Shown piece after piece: positions 3,439 through 50,633 of a stretch of DNA of 64,000 nt. The first letter of the stretch is position 1. The number at the start of each line of letters is the position of its first letter. Location: positions 18,852 to 82,851 of IMG/VR virus record IMGVR_UViG_3300036760_000945; one strand, given 5' to 3'. Both the position numbers and the translations under genes were made by a program. Under the pieces are notes generated by a model. The model worked only from the letters and a program-made list of their open reading frames with translations. It made no database searches and was not told the DNA's origin. This stretch comes from a virus.

Positions 3439-4401
3439 TTAGGTCTTCTTCCTACCAGAAACCGACATTCGATAAGCGCCGTCTTCTAATCTTATCTGGA
3501 TCCCCTCTACAATTATATTATCCTCTATGTGCCTGAGAGTACTGGTTGCGATCAAGTCCACAGCGAGAATGTCCCGCGCCTCGAGACGTGGATCCAACCG
3601 TGCGTCGACAGTTTTTTCATGCCTCTTCTGCAAAGCGGTAATTTGATATTTTCGCGCCGCCTCGATTGCGCCAGAGCTTAGCTCGCTTAGCCTATATAGC
3701 CTCGTGATTAAACCAACCTCTTCGGCGGTGGCCGCGTCTATCGCCAGGGCAACGTCCTCGCCCTGGATAATACCATCCGAGCTAAGTTGCAGATTGTCCT
3801 CTAGGGTATCTGCATATTGCTTGATGTGGTGCGCAAGCACAGTATCCTTTACTGCTGAGTAGGTGAATTCCAGGTTTCTGTCCACGCCGGCGTTTATCTC
3901 TATTGGGCGCTGCTGGATCACGGACTGGATCGCACTCTCGGTATTGGCCTCATAGTCAACATAAACTGCCTCGCGCTGATCGGCTAACTCCGAGCGGCAA
4001 ATATTTCCAAGCACGAGTGTACCAACGGTCACACTTAGACTGGCTGTTACCGTAGCCAGATAAGTAGCGGCCCCAACGGCATAGCTGTATACACAACACC
4101 CATTACAATACCCAGAAATATATTGGTCGTAGATGAAGATACGAATTTCAAAGTCCAAGGCTGCATCCTCTCCAAGTTGGAAGTTGGAGACATCAACAGT
4201 ATCGGCCCCCATAAGCGTCTTGAATTTCACATACCGATCGCCATCTATTGTCTCTGCCTCAACACTTACTTTGAGCGCAGCGGCCGCATCACCAGTAGTA
4301 TAGTAAGCAGGTAATGCCTGTATATCAGTAGTAAGCACAATGGTTCTTCCTACTACGGGTACAAAAGAGAAAAATACTTCGAGGCTGCCGTGTTCTGCCA
4401 T
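3439..4401 (-). CDS. Tail tip / hub-like protein
   Basis: 320 aa; C-terminal DPRLEARDIL..IVEGIQI resembles hub protein ends; TAATG coupling to upstream gene. Confidence 0.5.
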   Translation of the reverse strand: MAEHGSLEVFFSFVPVVGRTIVLTTDIQALPAYYTTGDAAAALKVSVEAETIDGDRYVKFKTLMGADTVDVSNFQLGEDAALDFEIRIFIYDQYISGYCNGCCVYSYAVGAATYLATVTASLSVTVGTLVLGNICRSELADQREAVYVDYEANTESAIQSVIQQRPIEINAGVDRNLEFTYSAVKDTVLAHHIKQYADTLEDNLQLSSDGIIQGEDVALAIDAATAEEVGLITRLYRLSELSSGAIEAARKYQITALQKRHEKTVDARLDPRLEARDILAVDLIATSTLRHIEDNIIVEGIQIRLEDGAYRMSVSGRKKT

Positions 4402-7400
4402 TAGAGCTCAAACTCCTCGCCAGGGCTATATGTACCATTAGCCAGGATAATATCTCCTGGAAAGGCTGCATCGGTGCCCGCTATTCTGCAAAACTTCTCC
4501 AAGAGTGAGGTAATGGAATTGTCGTGGTCATTGCTGGAGGCATAGAAACCCTTTAGTTCCACTGTATCCTTGGAGTGAATATAAACAAAAGTTCCTTCAG
4601 GATAAGAAACGCCCTCCGCCGGCGTGGCGATCAAGGAGACCCCGGTCAACCCATTGACAAGATACATTTTCTCAGAGCACGAGGCGGAGTAGTCTGGGAT
4701 ATCCTCTGAATAATGTCGCGCCCTTTCTCTTGCCCAGACAACCTGTCCAACAGTTGTAATCCACACCTTCCATTGTGTGTTCTGGTTCAGCCAAGCATAG
4801 CCAGCACTTGTGGCAACAATAGCACCCTCAAGATCATCTGAATGTGCGGCGCCATCGAGCCATTTGAATTGATAGAATTCTACTGCCATCCCGCCTTGGT
4901 AAGTATAGCCGCCACCGGGATCAGAGTTATATGGCGTGCCCCAATCTGTGTAGTTCCGCAACTGGAATGGCCCATTGGGTGGATTATCGACATCGTTGAA
5001 GAATTCGTTTTTCCCAGTATACTTATAGATCGTGCCGTCAATATCAACCTCTCCCGCTGTAGGGAAGTCAGTCACGAAGTCGGAGTCAAGGCTTGTATCA
5101 TCCATGTCCAATGGCAGGACAGGAATAATTGCCTCAGTGGAGCAAAAGCCGGTTGTTCTAAAGCGCGGCGGATCAATGAAGCCATAAATGCCAACATGGA
5201 ATATATCGTTAACTGTAACTATGCTGCCATCGGCTTCTAGCCAGGAGTATAGCAGTTGCGAGCCCCTGGTGGGCCATACTACAGTAGTGATCTCTTTTAC
5301 CTCAAGGCCGAAGAGGCCGTCTCTATGCCAAAGGCGCATATCGTAGTCAGTGCCTCCCACAATATCTCCGTTGTTCTGCTCGAGGAGGATTGTCTTCCGG
5401 CCACCGCGGATCTTGGCAAGACCCATCTTCCCCTCTGAGATATAGCCGAGAACGAAGTTGTCTTTGTCACTGCCAAGACCAAGAGGTCCAACGGACGTGT
5501 ATTCTCCTTTGAATTGTACCCTAACATCGCAGTCGAAATTCCAAGCCGAGAACGGGCGCGAGGAGAATAGGATTTGTGGGATACCCTTTACTTTACTTCT
5601 CATAACTGTTGGCAAGTCTCCGCCACCACCGACAGAGCCAGCAGTCACATTAATACTTGCTGCTATATATTTATTGGTATCCCAAAAAAGAGGTACTATG
5701 CCACCATCGATTGTGAACCAGTCGCCTGATTGTATATCAGTTTCGAAGGTGTGCTCGAAAGTATGACTGTAGGGGTTAGTGCGAGTAAAAACCTCACTAT
5801 AGGCATCCTCTACAATGGCGCCGAATTGTCCGCCTCTTTTATGTACAATATTATATTGAATTGTATTACCGCCGCCGGTTGGGCTTCCAGAGAAAGTAAT
5901 GCTAACTGTGACCTGGCCGCCAGTGCCGTGATTCGGACTTAATTCAAAGACGATCTTCTCGTCATCCCAACACAGGTAGTTCCAACCGTGTGGTCCGGCA
6001 AGATATTCAAGTGAGTCTGACCATATATTTGGGTCCCACGGATTTTCAGTCTCGCCGTTTATCTGATGAACACTTCCCACCTCTTCTTCGACCACAAAGC
6101 CAGGCTGATATGTTGACTCTATCGGTATCAGATTTACTGTGATGCCCGGCAGCTCAACACGCTCGGGATAATAAACCGTAGCACCACTATCTGATATTAC
6201 GCGTATGCCAACCTTGATGAGCTTCTTGCCCTCGCCTGGGTTTACCATTTGATAGACTACTGGGTATGAGCCCGCGCGTGCTCCTTCAGGGAAGTAGGTT
6301 TGCGGCGGATTTGAATAGCCACCATAGTCATCATCCAGCTCCTCGAGTGTAGACACAACTGTACTTTGTAAACCGTTTTCATCCTCTACCAATAAGAGTG
6401 CATAGAAGTCATCATTTGGCGAGTTGTGCGGTGTTGGATCATACGGATTGGGCTCCGGTGCGCCGCTGTCAATGCCGGCCCGGCTCCAACCGAAGCTGCG
6501 AACTTCTATGGTGGCCGCGTCATCGAGCACGGGATATTCTGTACAGAAAGTCTCAATATCAGCACACCAGTGATCTGTGGCAGTTGCAGCTTCGTGACAT
6601 TGATATCCAAGGCCGCCGCCTTCGGCTAGGATTTCTGGTGTCCAGAAGTCGCAGGACAATGTCCAGGTTGGACCAGCATCAGAGTTGACATCATAGAGAT
6701 TAGATTTATCCTTGACCAGGTCCAGAATAGACTGCTTGCCCTGCAGCTCCAGGTAAAAGGGGTGCGTCATTGAAGATGTATGCCACAGGCCATCGGGAAG
6801 AACAGAAAGATCATAGCCTCTTACACCATCCCCGAAGGATTTCACAATGCGTGCAATCACAACATCGTGATACTTGAGCCATTCCAAACCAGCAATTGTG
6901 TGAACACCAATTTCCAGCTTGGAATATGTGCCCGTGTCAAGGTAGGGATTGTCGAGGTAGAGCTCATCGCTGGCCTTCGCCTTTACTGCCCAGCCAGCCT
7001 GGGGATCGCCACTAATATTATCAAGGACAATGTCGACAGAGGGTGTATCCTCCCCAATAACCTGATACGGCGCAACGGTTCGATAGAGTTGTGTGTCTGT
7101 GAAAAAGACAATATCGCCACTTTCCTCATCGTAGCGCGCCGAGAAGCGAAGATCTACCTGGCTGACAAGTACTCTTCTATCAAGAGAGAAAACGATACCA
7201 TCGTCAGAATGGGACAATAGTGTATAGACAGTACTTGTCTCAAACTCTTCTTGTCGATAGAAACGACCAACCATGAACACGCGCTCGTTATATACAAAGA
7301 CGCCGGTTATGTCGAAATTGCTGAGGTCCTCGGGGATCGCAATAAAGAAGTCGGACCAGGAACCATCCTTGTTGTTAGTAGCCAATTTATAGTAAATACC

Positions 7401-24896: not shown

Positions 24897-27563
24897 CTAT
24901 CGAGGCCACGTCGTTGACGAACCTGCCTCGTCTCGCCTGCGGGTACGTACTTCATTTCTATCATGTCGGCGCCCCGAGACAAGTCCAGGGCTATCATCGC
25001 CAGTCTCGCTGCTGTTTTCCTCTCCAAAATCGCCATAATAAGCCCGGATCGCAAACGCACCCATTGCCAACGTTGCAACAACGTCTTGCGCCAGCTTGCC
25101 ACCACTTGCTTTATCCGCGATAGGATCATAGTTTTTTAGTTGGCTTCCTATGCCAGTACAGATCGAAGGCCATGAGAGCATCTTGCTTTCGAGCGATAGT
25201 CTCAGTGCAACAAGGTAACTATACCTTTTTGCGCCCGAAAAGTCAAGACCGGTTATTGAAATGACCGACTTCTTCTTGCCGTAGATATAATCCGTGCTGA
25301 TCAGCTCCGCCGTACTCTTCTGGGGCCCGGTATTGTCCACGGCAGCCAATATGGGTCCATAAGTATCGATCCACTCGATAAAACGGCTCACAAAAGGCAT
25401 GATCGAGCCTGCGCCATTACCCCACCAGAAAGCAACTATTGGACTATGCACTGGCGCCTCTGTGACATCAAAAACGATGATACAGGGAGCATTTCGGGAG
25501 GGTGCCACGCCTGTGCCTGGGTCGCCAATGATGAAATATTGGCGTCCTGCCTTACGTGGCTGTCTGAGATAGAACGCACCCATGTGCGGCAAGGTCTCCA
25601 TCTCATAACCAGCCTCGCCTTTGTCGATGGCATTCAGGACTATCTCTGATTGCCCGGCATCCAAGCAGGGATCAACAGTCGAGGCCGGGAAGTAAGAACC
25701 CTTACCCTGTGGGCGGTCCCCGGTCATGAAACGGTTGTGCAGTTCTTTGGGGATCATCTTCAGCGCAAAGCGGATCTGTTTATCGGTCGTATTCTTGTTA
25801 TACTTGGTGTCAATGTTGAATACCAGCCCGTCCTCTTTGTCCGCTGCTGCCATATCATAGAGTTGCCACAGCTCGGGGTTTTCCCACGGGTTAGAGATGA
25901 GCGAAAGCCGGCCTAGATAGGGGCGGTTCTCGGCAGTGCCGCCAGTAAGGCGGGTGACTAGGTTTGTCACCACCACCCCCAAATCGTCTATTTTCCCGGC
26001 TTCTTCGATATTGATCCAGTCGCCGCGGTAGGAAAAGATGTTTTCTGCAGTCCCCTCCTCACCCAATGTCTGAAATTCCAGAAGCGAGGAGAATTTCTTG
26101 GTGCCAATATAATACTCGAGGGCAACCTGCGGCCAGGGGCGCTTTGGCGCAGAGACAATGAGTTTTTCAAAGGGTGTGCCCTCGACCTGCTCCATTAGCG
26201 CTCGATACATAAGCATTGACTGCCAGGCACTGGGTGCAACATTCATAAACTTGAATAATTGCGTCAGCGCCGCATGATAGGCGGCACCCATCACCACGCC
26301 GACGGTTTTGCCAGAATTATGAGAGACAACACCCTCCATAACATAATTTTCGTAGCCGGGAACATGGATATCATATAGATCTATTTCTCCAACATCCTCT
26401 ATTTTAGTAATAATTGGTGTATAATAGTCCCACTTATTATTCTTGGGAGAGAAACATGGATCAGGAAGAACTTCAAATACTTGTTGATCAATTTGGGACA
26501 CAGACGGCTGTAGCAAAGCGCCTCGGGATAAGACAGCAAGATCTCTGGTATCTGGTAAAGAAAAATCACTGGCATATTCACTATGATATAACTCGCCGCA
26601 GAAAGAAGGGCTCGAAACTTGATCCTTATTCTCTAATACTGAAACATCTGGGAGATCTTGGTTGGAGTTGCCAGAGAATTGTTGATGCCCTCGAACTAAA
26701 GACCGATCCTGAGCACGTTCGTCGCTGGTTGGTTGTCCATTGTCCCCAAAAACGGAACAGGAAGCACGGTGGTGTGGGGGAAAGAAGTCCTGCCTTTGTC
26801 GATGGTGACTATTATAATAGGAAGGATAATTCTTATAACTTTGTACCCGCGCCAGAGGGGTATATGGGTCAGAAGAAATCAAATGGTTGGGTTGCAGAAC
26901 ATCGTCTTGTCGTTGAAAAGGAACTTGGCCGACTTCTTCATCCGGGCGAGGTTGTACATCATATTGATGGGGATGGAAAGAATAATCTCCCTGGAAACCT
27001 GATGACTTTCCCGACAAATCGCGAACATCTACTGTGGCACTGGGAGCAAATGCAGGCAAAATATGAGGAGCGATTAGAACATCTCCGAGCCGTAGATCGC
27101 GAGTACGTACAAACCCTTGGCTGGCAGTCATAAAACGATGATCCAGAGAGACGGTAATTGTATTACCATTAGAGAAGGAAAGTCTTTTTGCCCTGGCCTT
27201 TCCCTTGTAGAACGGCAGTGTTGCCTGGACCATTGCCCATCCTGATATGCCGCGGGCTAAAACAACTGGCGCCCTCTTATTATCAAGAAGCCACCTAAAT
27301 GATACATATCTCCCAAGTTCTACATCATAGAGATGACTATCAATGTCGGCGCAACTGATCCCACAGATGGCAACAATAAACGATTGCGTTGCCATACACA
27401 TTGTTTCTTGCCATTTACCCTCTGACTCGAAGTTCCAGTCCAGCATCCATCCGTGTTCTTGGTTTGGTTTTCTGAACCAGTAATCACAGAAAATATTGGG
27501 ATTGGCCGCCCCGGCCCTAAGAATTTCAATCTCGGCAGCAGTCATTGCGTGAATCGAGGGCAT
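24897..27563 (-). CDS. terL: Terminase large subunit (intein-containing)
   Basis: Walker A CGIS^SGKT split by intein; Walker B WINIEEAG; LISNP; nuclease motif IIGDPG; ~542 aa after splicing. Confidence 0.92.
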   Translation of the reverse strand: MPSIHAMTAAEIEILRAGAANPNIFCDYWFRKPNQEHGWMLDWNFESEGKWQETMCMATQSFIVAICGISCADIDSHLYDVELGRYVSFRWLLDNKRAPVVLARGISGWAMVQATLPFYKGKARAKRLSFSNGNTITVSLDHRFMTASQGFVRTRDLRLGDVLIAPHILPAFAPSATVDVRDLSGKSSGFQGDYSFHPHQYDVQPRPDEEVGQVPFQRQDDVLQPNHLISSDPYTPLARVQSYKNYPSYYNSHHRQRQDFFPPHHRASCSVFGDNGQPTSDERAQDRSLVRGHQQFSGNSNQDLPDVSVLENKDQVSSPSFCGELYHSEYASDFSLPDTRDLAVLSRGALLQPSVSQIDQQVFEVLPDPCFSPKNNKWDYYTPIITKIEDVGEIDLYDIHVPGYENYVMEGVVSHNSGKTVGVVMGAAYHAALTQLFKFMNVAPSAWQSMLMYRALMEQVEGTPFEKLIVSAPKRPWPQVALEYYIGTKKFSSLLEFQTLGEEGTAENIFSYRGDWINIEEAGKIDDLGVVVTNLVTRLTGGTAENRPYLGRLSLISNPWENPELWQLYDMAAADKEDGLVFNIDTKYNKNTTDKQIRFALKMIPKELHNRFMTGDRPQGKGSYFPASTVDPCLDAGQSEIVLNAIDKGEAGYEMETLPHMGAFYLRQPRKAGRQYFIIGDPGTGVAPSRNAPCIIVFDVTEAPVHSPIVAFWWGNGAGSIMPFVSRFIEWIDTYGPILAAVDNTGPQKSTAELISTDYIYGKKKSVISITGLDFSGAKRYSYLVALRLSLESKMLSWPSICTGIGSQLKNYDPIADKASGGKLAQDVVATLAMGAFAIRAYYGDFGEENSSETGDDSPGLVSGRRHDRNEVRTRRRDEAGSSTTWPR
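26316..27353 (-). mobile_element. Intein (346 aa) in TerL Walker A
   Basis: Starts with Cys (CADIDSHL); block B TVSLDHRF; block F LYDIHVPGYENY; ends SHN followed by +1 Ser. Confidence 0.92.
26456..27133 (+). CDS. HTH + HNH homing endonuclease encoded antisense within the intein
   Basis: 225 aa; GGGAGAG RBS; HTH TQTAVAKRLGI; HNH motif EHRLVVEKELGRLLHPGEVVHHIDGDGKNNLPGNL; GTGTATAAT -10 element at 26417-26425. Confidence 0.9.
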   Translation: MDQEELQILVDQFGTQTAVAKRLGIRQQDLWYLVKKNHWHIHYDITRRRKKGSKLDPYSLILKHLGDLGWSCQRIVDALELKTDPEHVRRWLVVHCPQKRNRKHGGVGERSPAFVDGDYYNRKDNSYNFVPAPEGYMGQKKSNGWVAEHRLVVEKELGRLLHPGEVVHHIDGDGKNNLPGNLMTFPTNREHLLWHWEQMQAKYEERLEHLRAVDREYVQTLGWQS

Positions 27564-34683: not shown

Positions 34684-35402
34684 TATACGCTCTTCGCCTC
34701 AGGTAATATATGTCGATCTCTGGCATATCCCCACTTGTGCCAGATTATCTTTGGCTTAGCAGGATTTTGTTCATTCCAAATAGATGATAAATGCTTTATC
34801 TTTGTTTCAGGACAAGTATGTTCTGCTCGGAGAAAGGCAAATTGCTCATCCCATTGTTCCCATCTCAACCATTCCTCATGCCACTTTGTAAAGAATTTCT
34901 GGGATTGGGTGCTCTTCCTGAAGAAGATCACGCCCGAGTTTATTTCTTGGCTCTTGGACTTCCCAAGAAAGGCGGAAGTGAAATCGCGTTCCTCCCGCGC
35001 CCAGTTCCATGCCTTGCCGAGTTTGTTGTGTTTGTATGTATCCTCAATGAAACGCCTATCGTCTGCAATACAAATATCGTACTCCCGCAGAAAATCAAAA
35101 CCGGGCATTATATTCCCACAGATTTCCGTATCTGCATCCAGGTACAGGGTGTACTCAAAGGGGCTATAGTTGTAAAGAAGAGGTTTCACTTTTCCTGCAA
35201 GGAATCTTCGCCCTGGTTGTGTGCCTGTCCATGGAGATCCCGCTTTCCATTCAAGATGGTCAAGCCCGGGAACGGGGTGGGTGCCAATGGTAATTGCTGG
35301 AATACCCTCACCTATACTTGCCCTGACAGAACGATAACTTTCAAGAGCCGCAGCAGCGGACTTCTCCCCAAATACCGCATAAACGATGCCCTTTCTAGGC
35401 AC
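34683..35402 (-). CDS. GT-A (GT8-like) glycosyltransferase, paralog of the 31437-33458 N-terminus
   Basis: LYLDADT, NSGVIFF, DEQFAF; GGAG + GTG start at 35402. Confidence 0.8.
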   Translation of the reverse strand: MPRKGIVYAVFGEKSAAAALESYRSVRASIGEGIPAITIGTHPVPGLDHLEWKAGSPWTGTQPGRRFLAGKVKPLLYNYSPFEYTLYLDADTEICGNIMPGFDFLREYDICIADDRRFIEDTYKHNKLGKAWNWAREERDFTSAFLGKSKSQEINSGVIFFRKSTQSQKFFTKWHEEWLRWEQWDEQFAFLRAEHTCPETKIKHLSSIWNEQNPAKPKIIWHKWGYARDRHILPEAKSV

Positions 35403-35700
35403 TTGATTTCTCCAAGTCGGAAACTGATTTGCCGCAACTTCTACAATGGCCGCTCGCGGGAAATGGATAGCCACAATCACATAACCCGTAGTCTTGGGCC
35501 AACTCGTTGACAATTCGCCGGATCTCGTCCTTATTCGAGGCCTCTGCCTCCGAGATGCCGGTGTACGTCTCCAGATCGACTACTTTCTTGCACACCGGGC
35601 ATCTCCAGGTGCGAAATCCACACGTTGGAGCATAGGGGCAATTATCATCTATAAATCCACAACTTGGACACTCGACAATTATAATATAGCGATCTCCCAT
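35395..35700 (-). CDS. Small multi-CxxC zinc-binding protein
   Basis: CPSC, CPVC, CDC, CRSC; GGAGG RBS. Confidence 0.65.
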   Translation of the reverse strand: MGDRYIIIVECPSCGFIDDNCPYAPTCGFRTWRCPVCKKVVDLETYTGISEAEASNKDEIRRIVNELAQDYGLCDCGYPFPASGHCRSCGKSVSDLEKSSA

Positions 35701-36296
35701 AGCTTTCCTCCTTCAATTTTCTTAATATTTCGATGACAAGATACACACAATGTTGTTCCGTTTCCAGGATCCCACAATTCTTTACAGGACAAAGCGTCTT
35801 TAAGAGAAGATATGTGATTCTTTCTAAGAACTAAAGCAAATGGAGTTAAATGATGTGCATTCAACTTCACCAATCTTCCCCTTGCGCCACACTTTATACA
35901 GGTTTTCTTGTCACGCTTAAATACTTTTATTTTCCATTCCTTATAAATATCGGAATTTCTTACTTGCATATATAAAGACGTTATACCTCCTCTCCATCTA
36001 GGGCTTTTTTCTCCTGCCTGTACTCCCTTTAGTCCCCTATTCCATACACTATGTGTTCGACTCCAGTTTTTATCTCCTTTCTGGGCCACACCAGATAAAC
36101 TCAATAATCCTTGGGCGAACAGACCCTTCTTTGTATCAGAAATCTTCTTTTTCTTCTCTTTGCTACAAGGAATACCTGGCCTAACCCTTGAGTTATGCCC
36201 CGAGACAAATTGAGGAAGTCCGTAATATTTATGGTGTGGCCGAAATGCTATATTTTCACCACAGCCACATCCACAATATCTATCGCCCATTGACAT
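35679..36296 (-). CDS. HNH endonuclease with NUMOD3-like DNA-binding region
   Basis: CGCGCGE..GHN; CIKC..NAHH..NGTTLCVSCH. Confidence 0.88.
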   Translation of the reverse strand: MSMGDRYCGCGCGENIAFRPHHKYYGLPQFVSGHNSRVRPGIPCSKEKKKKISDTKKGLFAQGLLSLSGVAQKGDKNWSRTHSVWNRGLKGVQAGEKSPRWRGGITSLYMQVRNSDIYKEWKIKVFKRDKKTCIKCGARGRLVKLNAHHLTPFALVLRKNHISSLKDALSCKELWDPGNGTTLCVSCHRNIKKIEGGKLWEIAIL

Positions 36297-44924: not shown

Positions 44925-45374
44925 ATGTCAGGAATGACTTGGATGAGAGAGCACTACCCAATAACTGCTGATGCAGCAGCCAGGCTTGGTCTGCTGGCTG
45001 CTGCCGAACACTCTTTACATAAGTGGGAGGGCTTTAGTAAAGAAGAGCGAAAGAAGCATAATGTCCACTTTGTCCATGGATATAGTATTACTTTAGCTGA
45101 TGCAACTGGGGAAGATATTATGAGCATGGGCAGCACTACGTGTGCATACTGTATACTCTTTTATGAATGTGGCGGGATTTGGTGCACAGGCTGTCCTTTG
45201 AGTGAGCTTCAGGAGAACTGTCTTGAGTCTGATAGTATCTATAAGTGGTTCATTTCTACCTTAGATCCTAGACCAATGATTAGACTACTCGAGAGAGCCC
45301 TCAGATTAGTAAAAGTAGATCTTATTATCTGTAGAAAGGGAAACCATCTACAGGGAGAGATTCTTGAGAAATAA
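44925..45374 (+). CDS. Cys-rich hypothetical protein (paralog of 46077-46478)
   Basis: EHSLHKWEG, CAYC, CTGCPL; AAGGAGG RBS. Confidence 0.7.
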   Translation: MSGMTWMREHYPITADAAARLGLLAAAEHSLHKWEGFSKEERKKHNVHFVHGYSITLADATGEDIMSMGSTTCAYCILFYECGGIWCTGCPLSELQENCLESDSIYKWFISTLDPRPMIRLLERALRLVKVDLIICRKGNHLQGEILEK

Positions 45375-46076: not shown

Positions 46077-46478
46077 ATGTCTGGCAAAACCTGGCTCGCA
46101 GAATTTTATCCTGAGGAAGCTGCAGAGGCAGCTAAAAGGGGTATGATTGCTGCTGGAGAGCACTGCCTCCAAAAATGGTTAGGCTATACTCCCGAGGCGC
46201 TAAAGAAACACAATCTACGCTTTGATAAGTGGATCGGGGGCACCATATTAGCCTACAAGGACGATGTGGTTATACATGCGGGCCCCGGTGCTTGCGCCTA
46301 TTGCCAAGTGCCGGGGAATCAGCTAGAAGGTTGCAAAAGTTGCCCTCTAGCCAATGTGGCCCCCTGTTGCTTTGTCCTAAATGGTCCCTATCAGGAATTC
46401 CTAAGCACTCTCGATCCCAGTGGATTAATAAAAGCGTTGAGGGAAGCACTTGCCTGGGCACAGAAATCTGCAAAGTAG
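46077..46478 (+). CDS. Cys-rich hypothetical protein (paralog of 44925-45374)
   Basis: EHCLQKWLG, CAYC, CKSCPL. Confidence 0.7.
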   Translation: MSGKTWLAEFYPEEAAEAAKRGMIAAGEHCLQKWLGYTPEALKKHNLRFDKWIGGTILAYKDDVVIHAGPGACAYCQVPGNQLEGCKSCPLANVAPCCFVLNGPYQEFLSTLDPSGLIKALREALAWAQKSAK

Positions 46479-46481
46479 AGG

Positions 46482-47594
46482 CTAGTCCTTAGTTGGGGGC
46501 TTTATATCTCCGCACTGCACACCCTTTACGAAGTTTATGATCGCTCGTGCTGCTACCTGTGCGCTACTTCCCAAGAAGGGATATAGTTCCTTAACTGCTC
46601 TCTTTCTGGGTTCTGCGAAGTGTGTTCTGTCCTTGAGCGCTCGCTCGATACAACCTCGTAGATCTTGAGGGCGCTCACACTGAGGCCCAATATCAGTGTA
46701 ATCCCACCAGCGAATACCGAAGTCTACAGTCTTGCGAAACCAGGGCGCGTTCAAGATTACTACTGGTCGATCAACACAAGCAAATTCATAAAGCGTACTG
46801 GACGAATCGTTGAGATAAATATCTGCTCTAGCCAAAACCTCTTCGAAAGAGGTAACTACTTCAATGCCCATTCCTTTGTACAGAGGTGCTAGCTTATCAA
46901 TGATCTTGGGATGCCCATGGCCAAGCACATGATAATGCTTGGTAAGACTTGGAAGAACGCCTTTGTAATATTCCCAAGCATTGCCGGCCTCAGGGCAAAC
47001 CCTCTTCCCATCCCAGTGAAACGCAACTGCGATTGTGGGTGGGTCATCTTGCACCTTTTTAGGTATATCTGCCCACTTATCCATCTTTGGCGTGCCCACA
47101 ACTATCTGAAAAGCACCCGGGAATGTCTTAGCGGTTTTCTTGCGAATGACCTCATTGGGAGCTAAGAATAAGCAAACATTGCAGCGTATCCCGCCTCCAC
47201 CGGCATAGCCAGGTGCATGTTCCGGGAAAGACAGTCCTACGCCGTGTTCCATAAGGATCTGTGGGCGCTTCGGGTTTTTACGAATACCCATTTTAGTATC
47301 CCCATAGGCACAAGTTACCAATGGCCCATCACCATCAGGCGTTATCTTCGCCGGGTCCCTGCTTGTGCGTTGGAACGGGGCTAATCCGGTTACTTCCTGG
47401 ATACCCAAACCGCGAGTATAATCTTTCAGGGAGATGGGCACATAGAAAGTTCCCCTCATAGTTACTGGAATGTTGTTCCAGATAGGCGCCAAGTGATCAA
47501 TAAAGTGAATCCGCCTGGCAAAGAAATCAATTGGCTTGAAGAAGTTCTGCCTGTTAAAAGTAGGGGTCCATACTGGTGATAGTCTACTCTTCAT
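46482..47594 (-). CDS. GT-B fold glycosyltransferase (CDP-glycerol glycerophosphotransferase-like)
   Basis: MEHG, VVGTPKMD, GHPK, ADIYLNDSSSTLYEF..RPVV; AGGAG before ATG 47594; TATAAT upstream. Confidence 0.8.
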   Translation of the reverse strand: MKSRLSPVWTPTFNRQNFFKPIDFFARRIHFIDHLAPIWNNIPVTMRGTFYVPISLKDYTRGLGIQEVTGLAPFQRTSRDPAKITPDGDGPLVTCAYGDTKMGIRKNPKRPQILMEHGVGLSFPEHAPGYAGGGGIRCNVCLFLAPNEVIRKKTAKTFPGAFQIVVGTPKMDKWADIPKKVQDDPPTIAVAFHWDGKRVCPEAGNAWEYYKGVLPSLTKHYHVLGHGHPKIIDKLAPLYKGMGIEVVTSFEEVLARADIYLNDSSSTLYEFACVDRPVVILNAPWFRKTVDFGIRWWDYTDIGPQCERPQDLRGCIERALKDRTHFAEPRKRAVKELYPFLGSSAQVAARAIINFVKGVQCGDIKPPTKD

Positions 47595-48538
47595 CCTCTT
47601 GCTCCTGTTAGGCTGTTCAATATCTCTACCTTGCATTATAATCTATATTCGATAGGAGATAAGGATGAAAATAAAGGACTGCATTTTACTTACAATAGAG
47701 GGAGCACAAGAGGCTGAACGCCTAGAGCTAGCTGAAAGCAAGAATTGGACACCACTACTAATTTATATTCATGTAACTCGAATAACCATTGGTGCCATAA
47801 TTGGTTTCCTGGTGGGTATTAGCTTGATACCAGCACTATTAGTACTCCTAGGGAGATAATATAGAATAGGCTATACTATATGTTTCACTAGTTAGATGCT
47901 ATTTGTCTGATATTAATAGATTTAGCCCCCTGGGGTGTAGAGCGAGCCTTCTATGCTAACACCAAAGGTTCCCGAAAGGAGAACGGGTAGCCCTATGACT
48001 ATTAACGAAGAAGAGAACGATAAGAGGAAAAAGGACTTAAGGGACTTCATATTATCCGAGGCCACAAAGGGCAATATTGTGCTTACGACTATTGGGGGTT
48101 TAATGGTAGCAAATCTCAATGAGTTTGTTAAGCAATCAACTGAGGGGCTTCTATATGATCTCAATCGCGATAAGGCTACAGTTATAACATTCCTCTACGA
48201 TTCGAAATGGATAAATGATTTTGCAGTAGCACTTGTCATCGAGAGGTTGAAAACTATCATTGAGGAGTACGAAAATGAGAGCAACAAGAACCCAACGGGA
48301 GTATGAGGAAGATGACTACGAGATCTCGTCAGTGCAACGTATATATGGCAAGAGTGGTACCTGTTATACCGTTCCCCCTCATGGAAGTATCCTGTATTCC
48401 TCCACTGAGTTAGATTATGTCTTCCTTTCCCATAAGGGACAATTGGTATTAATTATTGAAGAAGAAGAGATTGAAGCATTTGTGTATGATTTAGAGTATA
48501 TTAGAGTCTAATTCAAACTTTCAAAAGGAGAAAACAAA

Positions 48539-48598
48539 ATGTCTATTCATAAGGTAATCGCAGCAGGTTATTTGGGTCGTGATCCTGAAATGCCTTGA
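48539..48598 (+). pseudogene. Truncated 5' fragment of ssb (MSIHKVIAAGYLGRDPEMP*)
   Basis: AAAGGAG RBS; 16 of the first 18 aa identical to the ssb N-terminus at 49092. Confidence 0.9.
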
Positions 48599-48623
48599 CC
48601 CCGAAAAGAAAATATGATATATT
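48595..48623 (+). promoter_or_regulatory. Sigma70 promoter at the start of the HNH cassette
   Basis: TTGACC-17 bp-TATATT with extended TG. Confidence 0.65.
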
Positions 48624-48640
48624 GAACAAGGAGATAAATT

Positions 48641-49105
48641 ATGAAGTCTTGTTCAGTATGTCATATCCCTAAATCGCTTGAGGAGTTTAATAAACGGAGA
48701 TACTCCTCAGATGGTTATCGTTCTGAGTGTCGGGAGTGTCAGCACAAGGCACACCAGGCTTATTACTATATTGGGGGAGGCAAGAACCTAAAAGAGCAGT
48801 ATTATCTTGTCCATCGAGAGGAATTGCTACCCAGGCTACGACTCCACAGTGGTCCAACTCACTATAATCCCGAGACAGCTCCTGCACATAAAGCTGTTCT
48901 TCAAGCGCTACATCAAGGTACTCTTGTTCGTCCTAGTAACTGTGAAAATTGTAGTATTCCCTGTAAGCCGCAAGCTCACCATCATCATGGGTATGATGAA
49001 GAATATCATCTTGATATTATATGGCTTTGCATACCCTGTCATAGTTTAGCAGACAATTCTGGGTTTGCAAGCAGACTAAAGGAGAATAATAATGAGCATC
49101 CATAA
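48641..49105 (+). CDS. HNH homing endonuclease
   Basis: CSVC..F..CREC zinc finger; CENC..AHHHHGY..WLCIPCH; AAGGAG RBS. Confidence 0.88.
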   Translation: MKSCSVCHIPKSLEEFNKRRYSSDGYRSECRECQHKAHQAYYYIGGGKNLKEQYYLVHREELLPRLRLHSGPTHYNPETAPAHKAVLQALHQGTLVRPSNCENCSIPCKPQAHHHHGYDEEYHLDIIWLCIPCHSLADNSGFASRLKENNNEHP

Positions 49106-49526
49106 AATTATCGCAGTAGGGTACTTAGGCAGAGATCCAGAGATGAAATACTTGCCCAGCGGTACTGCCGTAGTTAACTTCTCTATCGCAACCGATCGTG
49201 TATGGACTAATACTGAAGGCGAGAAGGTCAAGGTTACTAGTTGGTTCCGTGTCTCGGTCTTCGGAAAGATGGCCGAGAATTGCAATCAGTATCTCAGGAA
49301 GGGCAGCCAAGTCTTTGTCGAAGGACACCTGACTTCTGATCCTACTACTGGTGGCCCCAAGGTGTTCACAAGGCAGGATGGGACTATTGGTTCTTCCTAT
49401 GAACTCTTCGCAGAGACAGTAAACTTCCTGAGCAAGGCTCCTAGTAATGATAGTGCTGAGGGCGCTACTCAAACAACACTGCCCACAGCCACGGCGCCAG
49501 CCGGCGAAGAGGATGTACCATTCTAG
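49092..49526 (+). CDS. ssb: Single-stranded DNA-binding protein
   Basis: GYLGRDPE, WFRVSVFG, YLRKGSQVFVEG, acidic C-terminus EEDVPF. Confidence 0.95.
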   Translation: MSIHKIIAVGYLGRDPEMKYLPSGTAVVNFSIATDRVWTNTEGEKVKVTSWFRVSVFGKMAENCNQYLRKGSQVFVEGHLTSDPTTGGPKVFTRQDGTIGSSYELFAETVNFLSKAPSNDSAEGATQTTLPTATAPAGEEDVPF

Positions 49527-50047
49527 GTTATCTCTCTAACCTTGCCCTCGATTACTTCTTGGGGCTGGTCAGCAGTGATTTCGACAGTTGTTACTCTTTC
49601 CCTCTGTGTAATAACCGCTGTGCCCGGACGGAGCGTAGGCCCCGTGAGTTTCTTTAGATACTCTTCAGCTATTCTGCTGGACTCCGGGGTTGGCCCGCCT
49701 TTCTCTCCAAGTTGGAGTGCCAATCTATCCTCAATCTGGGCAAGCCTGAGCTCAAGTGACAGCACATCCCCTTGAGACAGGTTGGCCTCAGCAGCACGGG
49801 CTAATAGCTTATGAAGCAAGCCCCGATGCACCTCTTGAACCTTCTCGTAGTCTTCCCTCAACATTGCGCTTCGTTGCTGCACAAGTGGCGCTGCTATATC
49901 GGGATCTTCGTTCAAGCATTTACTCAATGTCCAGGCACTGATCCCTGCTTTCTTACAAGCATCTGCCTTCGTCATTCCCTCGTCGCCAACAAGGCGCAAT
50001 GCTTCAAGAACCTTCGCTCGCTTCATTTTCTTCAGTTGCTCGTTCAT
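49523..50047 (-). CDS. Probable terminase small subunit (HTH)
   Basis: ACKKAGIS..T..EDP HTH, helical middle, EVIEG C-terminus; TATGGTATAAT at 50056-50066. Confidence 0.5.
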   Translation of the reverse strand: MNEQLKKMKRAKVLEALRLVGDEGMTKADACKKAGISAWTLSKCLNEDPDIAAPLVQQRSAMLREDYEKVQEVHRGLLHKLLARAAEANLSQGDVLSLELRLAQIEDRLALQLGEKGGPTPESSRIAEEYLKKLTGPTLRPGTAVITQRERVTTVEITADQPQEVIEGKVREIT

Positions 50048-50633
50048 AGTTTATAATTATACCATAGCACAATATCTTTCTATAGGAGGTAAAGTGAAGG
50101 CTACCGAGATACTAGAGTTGTTCGATCAGATTATTATTCGAAAGGTCAACGGGGAATATTATGCTGCCCTTGAGACAGTCAAGCCACCCAATCAACGCCA
50201 TGCTATATTAGCAAGCGGGGAGTCTAGCCCAAGTCCCACGGAGGCATTGAAGAGATTACTTGATCAAGAGATTGTTCGCTGCCCAGAATGCCAAAATCGT
50301 ATGGAGTGGGCCAATCAACAGACAAGGGACGGGATTGAATTTCTACCCAGATGTCCTTCTTGTAAAAGGATCGGTAGTATGGAACTGCAAGCGGAAGGAG
50401 TAACTATATGAGTAGACCAGTGCCAGCAATAGAACCCATTGATGGTATGGGGGTATTCTGTAGGTACTTCAATGTTACTGGAAGGCTTCTCAATGACTGT
50501 GTATCAATCACCGCGAAAACTACAGCGAAGAAGACCAAGCAGCTATTCGCTTCAGATTTCTATATTATCTCGAGCGCAGCACTTCGGGTTGCCGCGGAAA
50601 TTCGCTTACATCAGAGAAAGATAGGAGGCTAGC

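Follow-up and report, generated by a model that had tools for sequence, protein, structure and literature searches.

An HNH endonuclease gene between two starts of a phage ssb gene: a probable homing element with a spare 5' end

Free-standing homing endonuclease genes in coding regions are thought to survive there through introns or inteins or by splitting the gene that they enter. A further splicing-free way into genes, in which the endonuclease gene brings a spare end of its target with it, has so far been described for the 3' ends of genes. In the WHO elements of the yeasts Torulaspora and Lachancea an endonuclease gene is flanked by its target gene in full length on one side and by a stranded piece of that gene's end on the other (Coughlan et al. 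2020, eLife; PMC7282813). When such an element homes, the 3' end of FBA1 is swapped for the donor's diverged and resistant version, and the old end stays behind as the fragment, which serves as a homology arm (PMC7282813). Mobile open reading frames (ORFs) of fungal mitochondria have given rise to similar 'gene hybrids' in atp6 of Allomyces macrogynus and in atp6, atp9, cox2 and nad3 of Glomus (PMC3630166), and partial duplications of atp6 and cob have been found beside GIY-YIG and LAGLIDADG ORFs (PMC6279837, PMC7487136). In this study we analysed a stretch of 64,000 nucleotides, here called the window, which represents bases 18852-82851 of an 82,851-base viral contig from an uncultured phage (IMG/VR record IMGVR_UViG_3300036760_000945) that is estimated to be about half complete. 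On the plus strand of the window an HNH endonuclease gene stands between a stranded start of ssb, the gene of the single-strand-binding protein (SSB), and a complete ssb gene. We consider it probable, at roughly 0.7, that this locus is a homing genetic element lodged at the 5' end of ssb, a gene that nevertheless stays whole. Positions given below are window positions unless they are marked as contig positions or carry an L-number.

By analogy, the locus could be regarded as a 5' mirror image of the yeast WHO elements and of the fungal mitochondrial mobile ORFs. With WHO it shares an endonuclease gene placed between a full gene and a stranded fragment of a gene end, as well as the absence of splicing. 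The WHO elements occupy the 3' end of the nuclear gene FBA1 in a eukaryote and encode an intein-like LAGLIDADG protein with a zinc finger, whereas here we find the 5' end of a gene, an HNH protein and a phage; moreover, allele-specific cleavage has been demonstrated for WHO and is here predicted from sequence. Since it is the 5' end that is replaced, the unit must also supply a ribosome-binding site (RBS) and a start codon. Endonuclease ORFs of fungal mitochondria likewise move together with a foreign copy of a gene end and leave the native end stranded next to them. The two atp6 ends of Glomus are 63.5% identical in nucleotides and 91% in amino acids (PMC3630166), the two ssb starts described here 70% and 89%. 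The fungal ORFs differ in being mostly C-terminal and often in-frame fusions, in lying in organelle genomes and in encoding LAGLIDADG or GIY-YIG enzymes; in Allomyces and Glomus, unlike here, sister species showed which copy is native. The layout as such is known from yeast and fungal mitochondria, and in the present case it concerns a 5' end, a phage, an HNH enzyme and ssb. No published phage example of a stub, an endonuclease gene and a restored gene was found in the literature searched, which reached few subscription journals.

Phages offer partial parallels. In T4 the segG gene lies directly upstream of gene 32, which encodes the single-strand-binding protein, and SegG targets gene 32 in a case of intronless homing (PMC2988022). 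Promoters for this essential downstream gene are carried by segG, which favours retention of the endonuclease gene (PMC2988022). The likeness consists of an endonuclease gene upstream of a single-strand-binding protein gene and of a signal embedded in it, promoters in segG versus an RBS here. Unlike the HNH gene of our locus, segG is intergenic, has no duplicated gene end beside it and encodes an enzyme of the GIY-YIG type, and the sequence of gp32 shows no relation to bacterial-type SSB; cleavage and co-conversion by SegG were shown experimentally, whereas the present case is known from sequence alone. Free-standing endonuclease genes can also split genes, as mobE does in nrdA of phage Aeh1, mobA in T4 gene 60/39 and a seg gene in gene 43 of Aeromonas phage 25 (PMC2988022). 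Those insertions resemble ours in that a free-standing endonuclease gene sits in a conserved coding region and the function is kept without splicing. There, however, the products of the two pieces reassemble, whereas in the present locus a whole gene has been restored and the severed piece is given up. A last parallel is one of working principle. The engineered home-and-rescue drives called HomeR are designed to place a nuclease cassette in an essential gene together with a recoded, cleavage-resistant rescue copy (PMC7968924). This likeness is an analogy, since HomeR is synthetic, CRISPR-guided, made for insects and without evolutionary relation to the phage locus. The layout described here would be a natural counterpart of such engineered gene drives.

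A first-pass annotation of this DNA had described an RBS with 18 ssb codons and CCT TGA, followed by the HNH gene and by a second RBS with a full ssb, and all of these parts could be read directly (Table 1). The span that it gave for the element, 48539-49145, is correct in that 49145 is the end of the second 18-codon copy; the ssb gene itself continues to 49526. Between the stop codon of the stub and the HNH ORF lie 42 nt, and the 3' end of the HNH gene overlaps the complete ssb by 14 nt. The encoded 144-aa protein is a complete bacterial-type SSB (Pfam SSB PF00436, 2.7e-29, model positions 2-104 of 104; phrog_44, 2.2e-35). Its closest relative, P0002, shows 78% identity; the others reach about 55-66%, and those that are named come from Chloroflexota. 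The locus was also present in a Logan contig of 11,898 nt, which covers 46500-50506 with zero differences and stems from the only public run with the locus, a sediment metagenome that is possibly the source sample. Hence the layout is not an artefact of one assembler.

Within the 82.9-kb contig the stub is the only second match to the SSB (tblastn E 3e-7; next best 0.18). In a start-anchored scan of N-termini the pair of stub and ssb scores 83, and none of 142,799 non-neighbouring pairs reaches 30. The block of nucleotide similarity (48524-48592 versus 49078-49145) begins at the RBS and ends exactly after codon 18. Over these codons the stub and the functional start are identical in 38 of 54 bases and in 16 of 18 residues, and ten of the 16 shared residues use different codons; both of these residue counts had been given before and were confirmed by direct comparison. 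To call the functional start 'recoded', as was done at first, is an overstatement: of the degenerate codons for the same residue 10/14 differ, where 9.3 would be expected for a random synonymous choice, and orthologues of about 80% protein identity, such as this SSB and P0002, would show the same pattern.

The diverged ssb start flanks the HNH insert as a direct repeat, and such a repeat would also be left by a local tandem duplication of the ssb start at insertion, comparable to a long target-site duplication, with later divergence in place. In that case, however, the stranded copy would drift neutrally, yet the 16 base differences between the copies lead to 2 residue changes. When neutral drift with 16 substitutions was simulated 300,000 times, no run had four or fewer residue changes, and the switches between TCT and AGC for serine and between CGT and AGA for arginine need several steps each. 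We therefore regard an in-place duplication as hardly tenable. Saturation of the synonymous sites together with a conserved protein speaks for diverged lineages instead, and the two copies read as 5' ends from such lineages that have both evolved nearly throughout as working gene starts. In the stub no more than a single residue (Ala9) is private and the frame is undamaged, which speaks for a recent event. Its RBS, start codon and reading frame are intact, and the start regions of both ssb copies are predicted to be unstructured.

A second SSB family is interrupted at the same point. The closest homologues of the HNH protein, P0122 and its near-twin P0272 (50% identity), start with MASLNKWEIIGHLGSDPEM and then run directly into the HNH part (KECSSCH..., aligned with MKSCSVCH here). 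The 19 N-terminal residues of P0122 belong to a different SSB family: 18 of them are identical in the SSB P0286, and 17 in the intact SSB of viral contig L102 (4001-4351), which reads MPSLNKWEIIGHLGSEPEM and then RFTPSG. In L102 a 72-aa ORF directly abuts ssb upstream, and no HNH is present. Of this SSB family 17 clusters turned up that consist of stand-alone proteins (110-131 aa), one cluster carries HNH, and one locus (L102) was read. In both SSBs the break comes directly behind the Met of D-P-E-M, at codon 18 here and at codon 19 in P0122, and this junction lies in the most conserved stretch of SSB, coding for G-x-L-G-x-D-P-E-M. The stub is handled in two ways, being continued in frame into HNH in P0122 and closed by TGA here, where HNH has its own start region. 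That two HNH genes, each the nearest relative of the other, interrupt two diverged ssb families at one codon boundary, with many alleles seemingly left uninterrupted, is the signature of a homing lineage tied to a target site. The initial view of a splicing-free insertion of a free-standing HNH gene at ssb codon 18/19 agrees with this shared boundary, with the absence of an intron model, with the different frame of HNH and with the complete ssb behind it. A group I or group II intron was rejected, as no Rfam family matches 48200-49700 beyond noise (E up to 1). An intein was rejected as well: HNH lies in another frame than ssb with stops on both sides, and there is no Hint domain.

Judged by its conserved residues and its modelled fold, the HNH gene looks intact as a nuclease. 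The protein is matched over its full length by phrog_2340 'endonuclease' (3.6e-18), and an exhaustive profile search gave 9,182 homologues whose alignments span the whole protein. Among 35 of them that were aligned with one another, C4, C7, C30, C33, C101, C104, H114, C130, C133 and H134 are invariant and H113 is nearly so. The first four cysteines form the N-terminal zinc ribbon, and C101, C104, C130 and C133 make up two CxxC pairs around the core. An AlphaFold model with a predicted local distance difference test score (pLDDT) of 91.8 contains a beta-beta-alpha element at residues 111-138, with a first strand at 111-113, at which H113 and H114 lie, a second strand at 127-129 and a helix at 131-138 with H134. 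The best match among solved structures is Gme HNH (4h9d; Z 5.6, root-mean-square deviation 5.3, 79 residues aligned), and the next ones are Hpy99I, McrA and GVE2 HNH (Z 4.0-4.2) and Cap5; these scores are middling, and the matches are consistently HNH nucleases. The GC content at third codon positions (GC3) of the HNH gene is 0.32, versus a mean of 0.51 for the ORFs of the genome. This places it in the lowest 5%, like the other endonuclease genes of the genome, and its foreign-looking composition counts for a homing element.

HNH proteins also serve phage packaging and other roles in phages. It might hence be that the present one is an inactive relic, or that it has been domesticated and serves the phage in DNA processing or in competition with co-infecting phages, with the stub as a fossil. 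Such a reading would fit the fact that the best other HNH match among about 15 billion proteins is 50% identical, so that a recent spread is not visible; a search of these proteins at the 90% cluster level turned up no copy besides that of the window. The ORF, however, is full length and has kept all conserved Cys and His, the elaborate hairpin control described below is typical of active T4 homing endonucleases, and the hardly altered stub points to a recent event. We think it quite improbable that the HNH gene is a relic or domesticated.

Table 1. Positions of the features that make up the ssb-HNH locus in the window
Feature	Position	Strand	Description
Shine-Dalgarno AAGGAG of stub	48525-48530	+	read directly; 8 nt before ATG; within the similarity block
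ssb stub	48539-48598	+	18 codons MSIHKVIAAGYLGRDPEM (48539-48592), then CCT TGA; stop at 48596-48598
Promoter-like site	48595-48623	+	TTGACC 48595-48600, 17 nt, TATATT 48618-48623, TG 48615-48616; 10/12 consensus matches
RNA hairpin	48612-48666	+	20 bp, arms 48612-48631 and 48647-48666; inverted repeat I1
Shine-Dalgarno AAGGAG of HNH	48628-48633	+	read directly; 7 nt before ATG
HNH (beta-beta-alpha-metal) endonuclease gene	48641-49105	+	154 aa; N-terminal four-cysteine zinc ribbon, C-terminal nuclease domain
Shine-Dalgarno AAGGAG of functional ssb	49079-49084	+	within the 3' end of the HNH gene, on the Lys-Glu codons of its RLKE
Second copy of ssb codons 1-18	49092-49145	+	MSIHKIIAVGYLGRDPEM; part of the functional gene
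Complete ssb	49092-49526	+	144 aa; starts MSIHKIIAVGYLGRDPEMKY; acidic C-terminal tip EEDVPF

The region between the stub and the HNH gene seems to control the endonuclease. Its hairpin (-22.9 kcal/mol, z -6.2) is more stable than that of any of 200 shuffles. The stem pairs AAGG (48628-48631), all but the last two bases of the HNH Shine-Dalgarno, and the HNH AUG lies in the loop. TTGACC had been proposed as the -35 of a new promoter, and the site is indeed present; it overlaps the stop codon of the stub, and the -10 of the promoter-like site lies inside the 5' arm of the hairpin. As a promoter it is a match to consensus, in a region with 10 promoter-like sites versus 5.2 +/- 2.2 in shuffles. 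Operon read-through transcripts would form the hairpin and so hide the HNH RBS, while RNA initiated at the promoter-like site, with its 5' end a few bases further on, would be free of the 5' arm and translatable. Such a control is known from I-TevI, I-TevII, I-TevIII and segB of T4 and from mobE of Aeh1, where a stable hairpin sequesters the RBS of the endonuclease gene on read-through transcripts and a promoter is placed so that the transcripts from it escape the inhibitory arm (PMC2988022). The present locus resembles them in having a hairpin over the HNH RBS and a promoter-like -10 in the 5' arm. It differs in that the promoter is here a consensus match, with transcripts and translation predicted, and in that the host, going by the named SSB relatives, is probably not a proteobacterium. 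Since the -10 lies within the 5' arm of a hairpin that hides the RBS, the idea of a promoter gains weight, and the layout supports, short of proof, an actively regulated endonuclease and a real promoter.

Possibly the stub itself has a function, as a short upstream ORF that opens the mRNA or tunes the expression of HNH and ssb. Its start region is intact and unstructured with a good Shine-Dalgarno, and 13 nt separate its stop from the base of the hairpin downstream. Selection for translation, however, would not keep the amino-acid sequence of SSB, and in P0122 the stub is simply fused to HNH. A role of this kind would be compatible with a homing element as an add-on; as the reason why the stub was kept we give it very little credence.

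The homing element that we propose could work in the following way. The unit would consist of the free-standing HNH gene with its own control region, followed by an RBS and a foreign copy of at least 18 ssb codons. This foreign start would have been joined in frame to the rest of ssb, with the previous 5' end left upstream as a dead stub of 19 codons. In a mixed infection HNH would cut or nick the HNH-free ssb near codon 18/19, in the G-x-L-G-x-D-P-E-M stretch, and the break would be repaired from the HNH-bearing genome. Homology for the left end would be offered by the upstream gene together with the stub, and for the right end by the part of ssb that follows the break. Copying would bring in both the HNH gene and the spare 5' end, and what had been the recipient's start would turn into the new stub. 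In the last 27 bases before the junction the stub and the functional copy differ at 9, and these differences could make the functional copy a poor HNH substrate; they are also predicted to disfavour deletion by recombination between the repeats. The origin of the first such unit could be explained by one-sided illegitimate repair, which has been documented during homing in T4 (PMC2988022).

The same documented repair, or an exchange of modules, might instead have brought in HNH together with a complete foreign ssb, so that the whole gene was displaced and 18 codons of the resident gene were left as a scar. The functional ssb does resemble a relative, the protein P0274, without any break at codon 18/19: residues 1-40 are identical, and P0274 agrees with the functional copy in 18/18 residues and with the stub in 16/18, while P0002 and P0273 agree with both copies in 17/18. 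In addition, the GC3 of functional codons 1-18 (0.50) equals that of the rest of ssb (0.51), and the GC3 of the stub (0.28) is like that of the AT-rich upstream region. This signal is too small to decide the matter, however, as 9-11% of random 18-codon windows have a GC3 that low and 18 codons are underpowered for a test of which copy is native. The P0122 boundary in another SSB family points to a site-specific and repeated process rather than to a random scar, and the RBS, start codon and reading frame of the stub are intact. Displacement of the whole gene appears unlikely to us; it differs from the proposed homing element mainly in the length of the converted tract. Also in a homing element the import may extend past codon 18, possibly over the whole gene. 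The diverged direct repeat around the insert can be described in two ways, as HNH plus a new start or as an old start plus HNH, and we infer the former direction of import.

Several observations weigh against a homing element with an imported start. At the protein level the functional copy is at least as similar to the relatives as the stub is. An HNH-free variant or joint of this phage's ssb was not seen in the contigs of the single run, which drop rare variants. Pfam HNH models gave no significant match to the HNH protein. The promoter-like site matches a consensus of the sigma-70 type, which may not be the type used by the host. At 10 loci with distant HNH homologues we found no duplicated gene start, the local alignment scores being 17-29 versus 88 here. 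Among 43 further loci there was none in which the HNH homologue lies beside ssb, and in the 18 of them with an identifiable downstream gene the start of that gene was never duplicated. The layout is confined to a small HNH subclade, and there is no evidence for a duplicated start as a trait of the whole family.

Related sequences that could represent the empty state are few. On record, no related HNH lies near the SSB group of P0002, which suggests, short of proof, that the alleles of this group are empty, i.e. HNH-free. A metagenome scan gave SSBs of at most 53% identity among the matches listed, and scans of viral contigs with the SSB, the HNH, P0122 and two alignments gave only distant relatives. 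A scan of prokaryote genomes and a nucleotide search of a phage collection gave no match. The genes that neighbour the locus have no PHROG or Pfam match and show no synteny with any locus compared.

To our minds there is an even chance that the homing element is an example of a general third strategy by which phage homing endonucleases live in essential genes, next to introns or inteins and the splitting of genes. It would be a 'home-and-rescue' unit made of a nuclease gene, an RBS and a nuclease-resistant spare 5' end, with the stranded old start as the left homology arm. A small HNH lineage would then track the G-x-L-G-x-D-P-E-M stretch across diverged phage groups, and several unrelated HNH and GIY-YIG genes in the genome would use the same strategy. 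If this were true, it would account for short orphan 'starts' as well as chimeric 5' ends among phage genes and would drive the exchange of gene ends between distant phages. With an enzyme of 154 aa, a defined junction at codon 18/19 and a clear hairpin switch, the locus is compact and testable.

Members of the HNH family sit at varied places in sequenced phages, for example as gene 26 of Sf6, as mobile endonuclease genes do. In three Vequintavirinae phages a homologue lies right after the primase/helicase gene and upstream of the DNA polymerase gene (adjacent only in GAP31), and at these three loci a duplication of a gene start is neither annotated nor seen in the N-terminus scan. The N-terminal extensions of 22 other family members include none with an SSB-like start. 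In two family members, P0172 and P0181, the zinc ribbon is preceded by 89 and 48 residues, respectively, of unrelated sequence, and these N-terminal extensions may be starts of target genes fused in frame, like that of P0122. On three unrelated viral contigs (L104 at about 4540, L105 at about 2620 and L106 at about 3766) a distant HNH homologue lies just upstream of a gene starting with MLP(Y/F)QMIAGG, which suggests another HNH lineage tied to a different target gene. The closest homologues keep (R/K)-L-x-E near the C-terminus, and in the window the corresponding Lys-Glu codons AAG GAG are the Shine-Dalgarno of ssb; given the conserved Glu, the relatives too may embed the start of a downstream gene in the nuclease gene.

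The first-pass annotation had also proposed to search phage genomes for N-terminal duplications beside HNH genes. The loci of distant homologues yielded none, as described above, and the present genome yielded further candidates, which count for a homing element. Among neighbouring gene pairs there are six start-anchored matches with a score of at least 25, versus 0.8 expected, and two of the six are pairs of whole-gene paralogues. One candidate lies before the window, at contig 3575-4593 (L111 576-1594), where a GIY-YIG+NUMOD3 gene (contig 3624-4253) stands between the stranded start MDQDQIKAFVISSR, in another frame, and a 118-aa gene starting with MEQKVKEFIISVR. The layout is again that of stub, nuclease and gene, more diverged and with one indel, and a modest hairpin (z -1.9) covers the Shine-Dalgarno at the GIY-YIG start. 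On the minus strand of the window, in the region 35395-36290, an HNH_2-family gene of 203 aa (35679-36290) is followed by a 101-aa Cys-rich neighbour, and both start with MGDRY. The Gly and Arg codons of the two starts differ, and the second start lies with GGAGG inside the 3' end of the HNH_2 gene. Here the nuclease seems, from this arrangement, to use the original start of the target gene.

A stranded start without a nuclease was seen upstream of an RNA ligase gene (contig 6115-7023; Pfam RNA_ligase, 7.5e-17) in the region L111 2912-4024 (contig 5911-7023), before the window. The ligase starts with MQHISSYCEVYQLGH, and about 200 nt upstream lies a 21-codon ORF with a strong RBS that reads MEHISSYPWPLVVYLGHGNIH up to its stop, the two starts comparing as MEHISSY...VYLGH versus MQHISSY..VYQLGH. 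Between this stub and the ligase there is only an ORF of 50 aa without a family match. The stub may have been left after loss of an endonuclease gene; in its ribosome-binding region, GGAGAAAAACAAAATG, it is very similar to the ssb stub. Two paralogues of 149 and 133 aa on the plus strand (44925-45374 and 46077-46478), with starts that share MSGxTW..YP..A..AA, are separated by ORFs of 77 and 144 aa; a PHROG search with the 149-aa paralogue and the 144-aa ORF gave no match. This pair is a whole-gene duplication or an allele pair and not a stub. Finally, a 225-aa ORF on the plus strand of the window (26456-27133) has an HNH_3 domain (7.5e-9) and an N-terminal match of the helix-turn-helix type.

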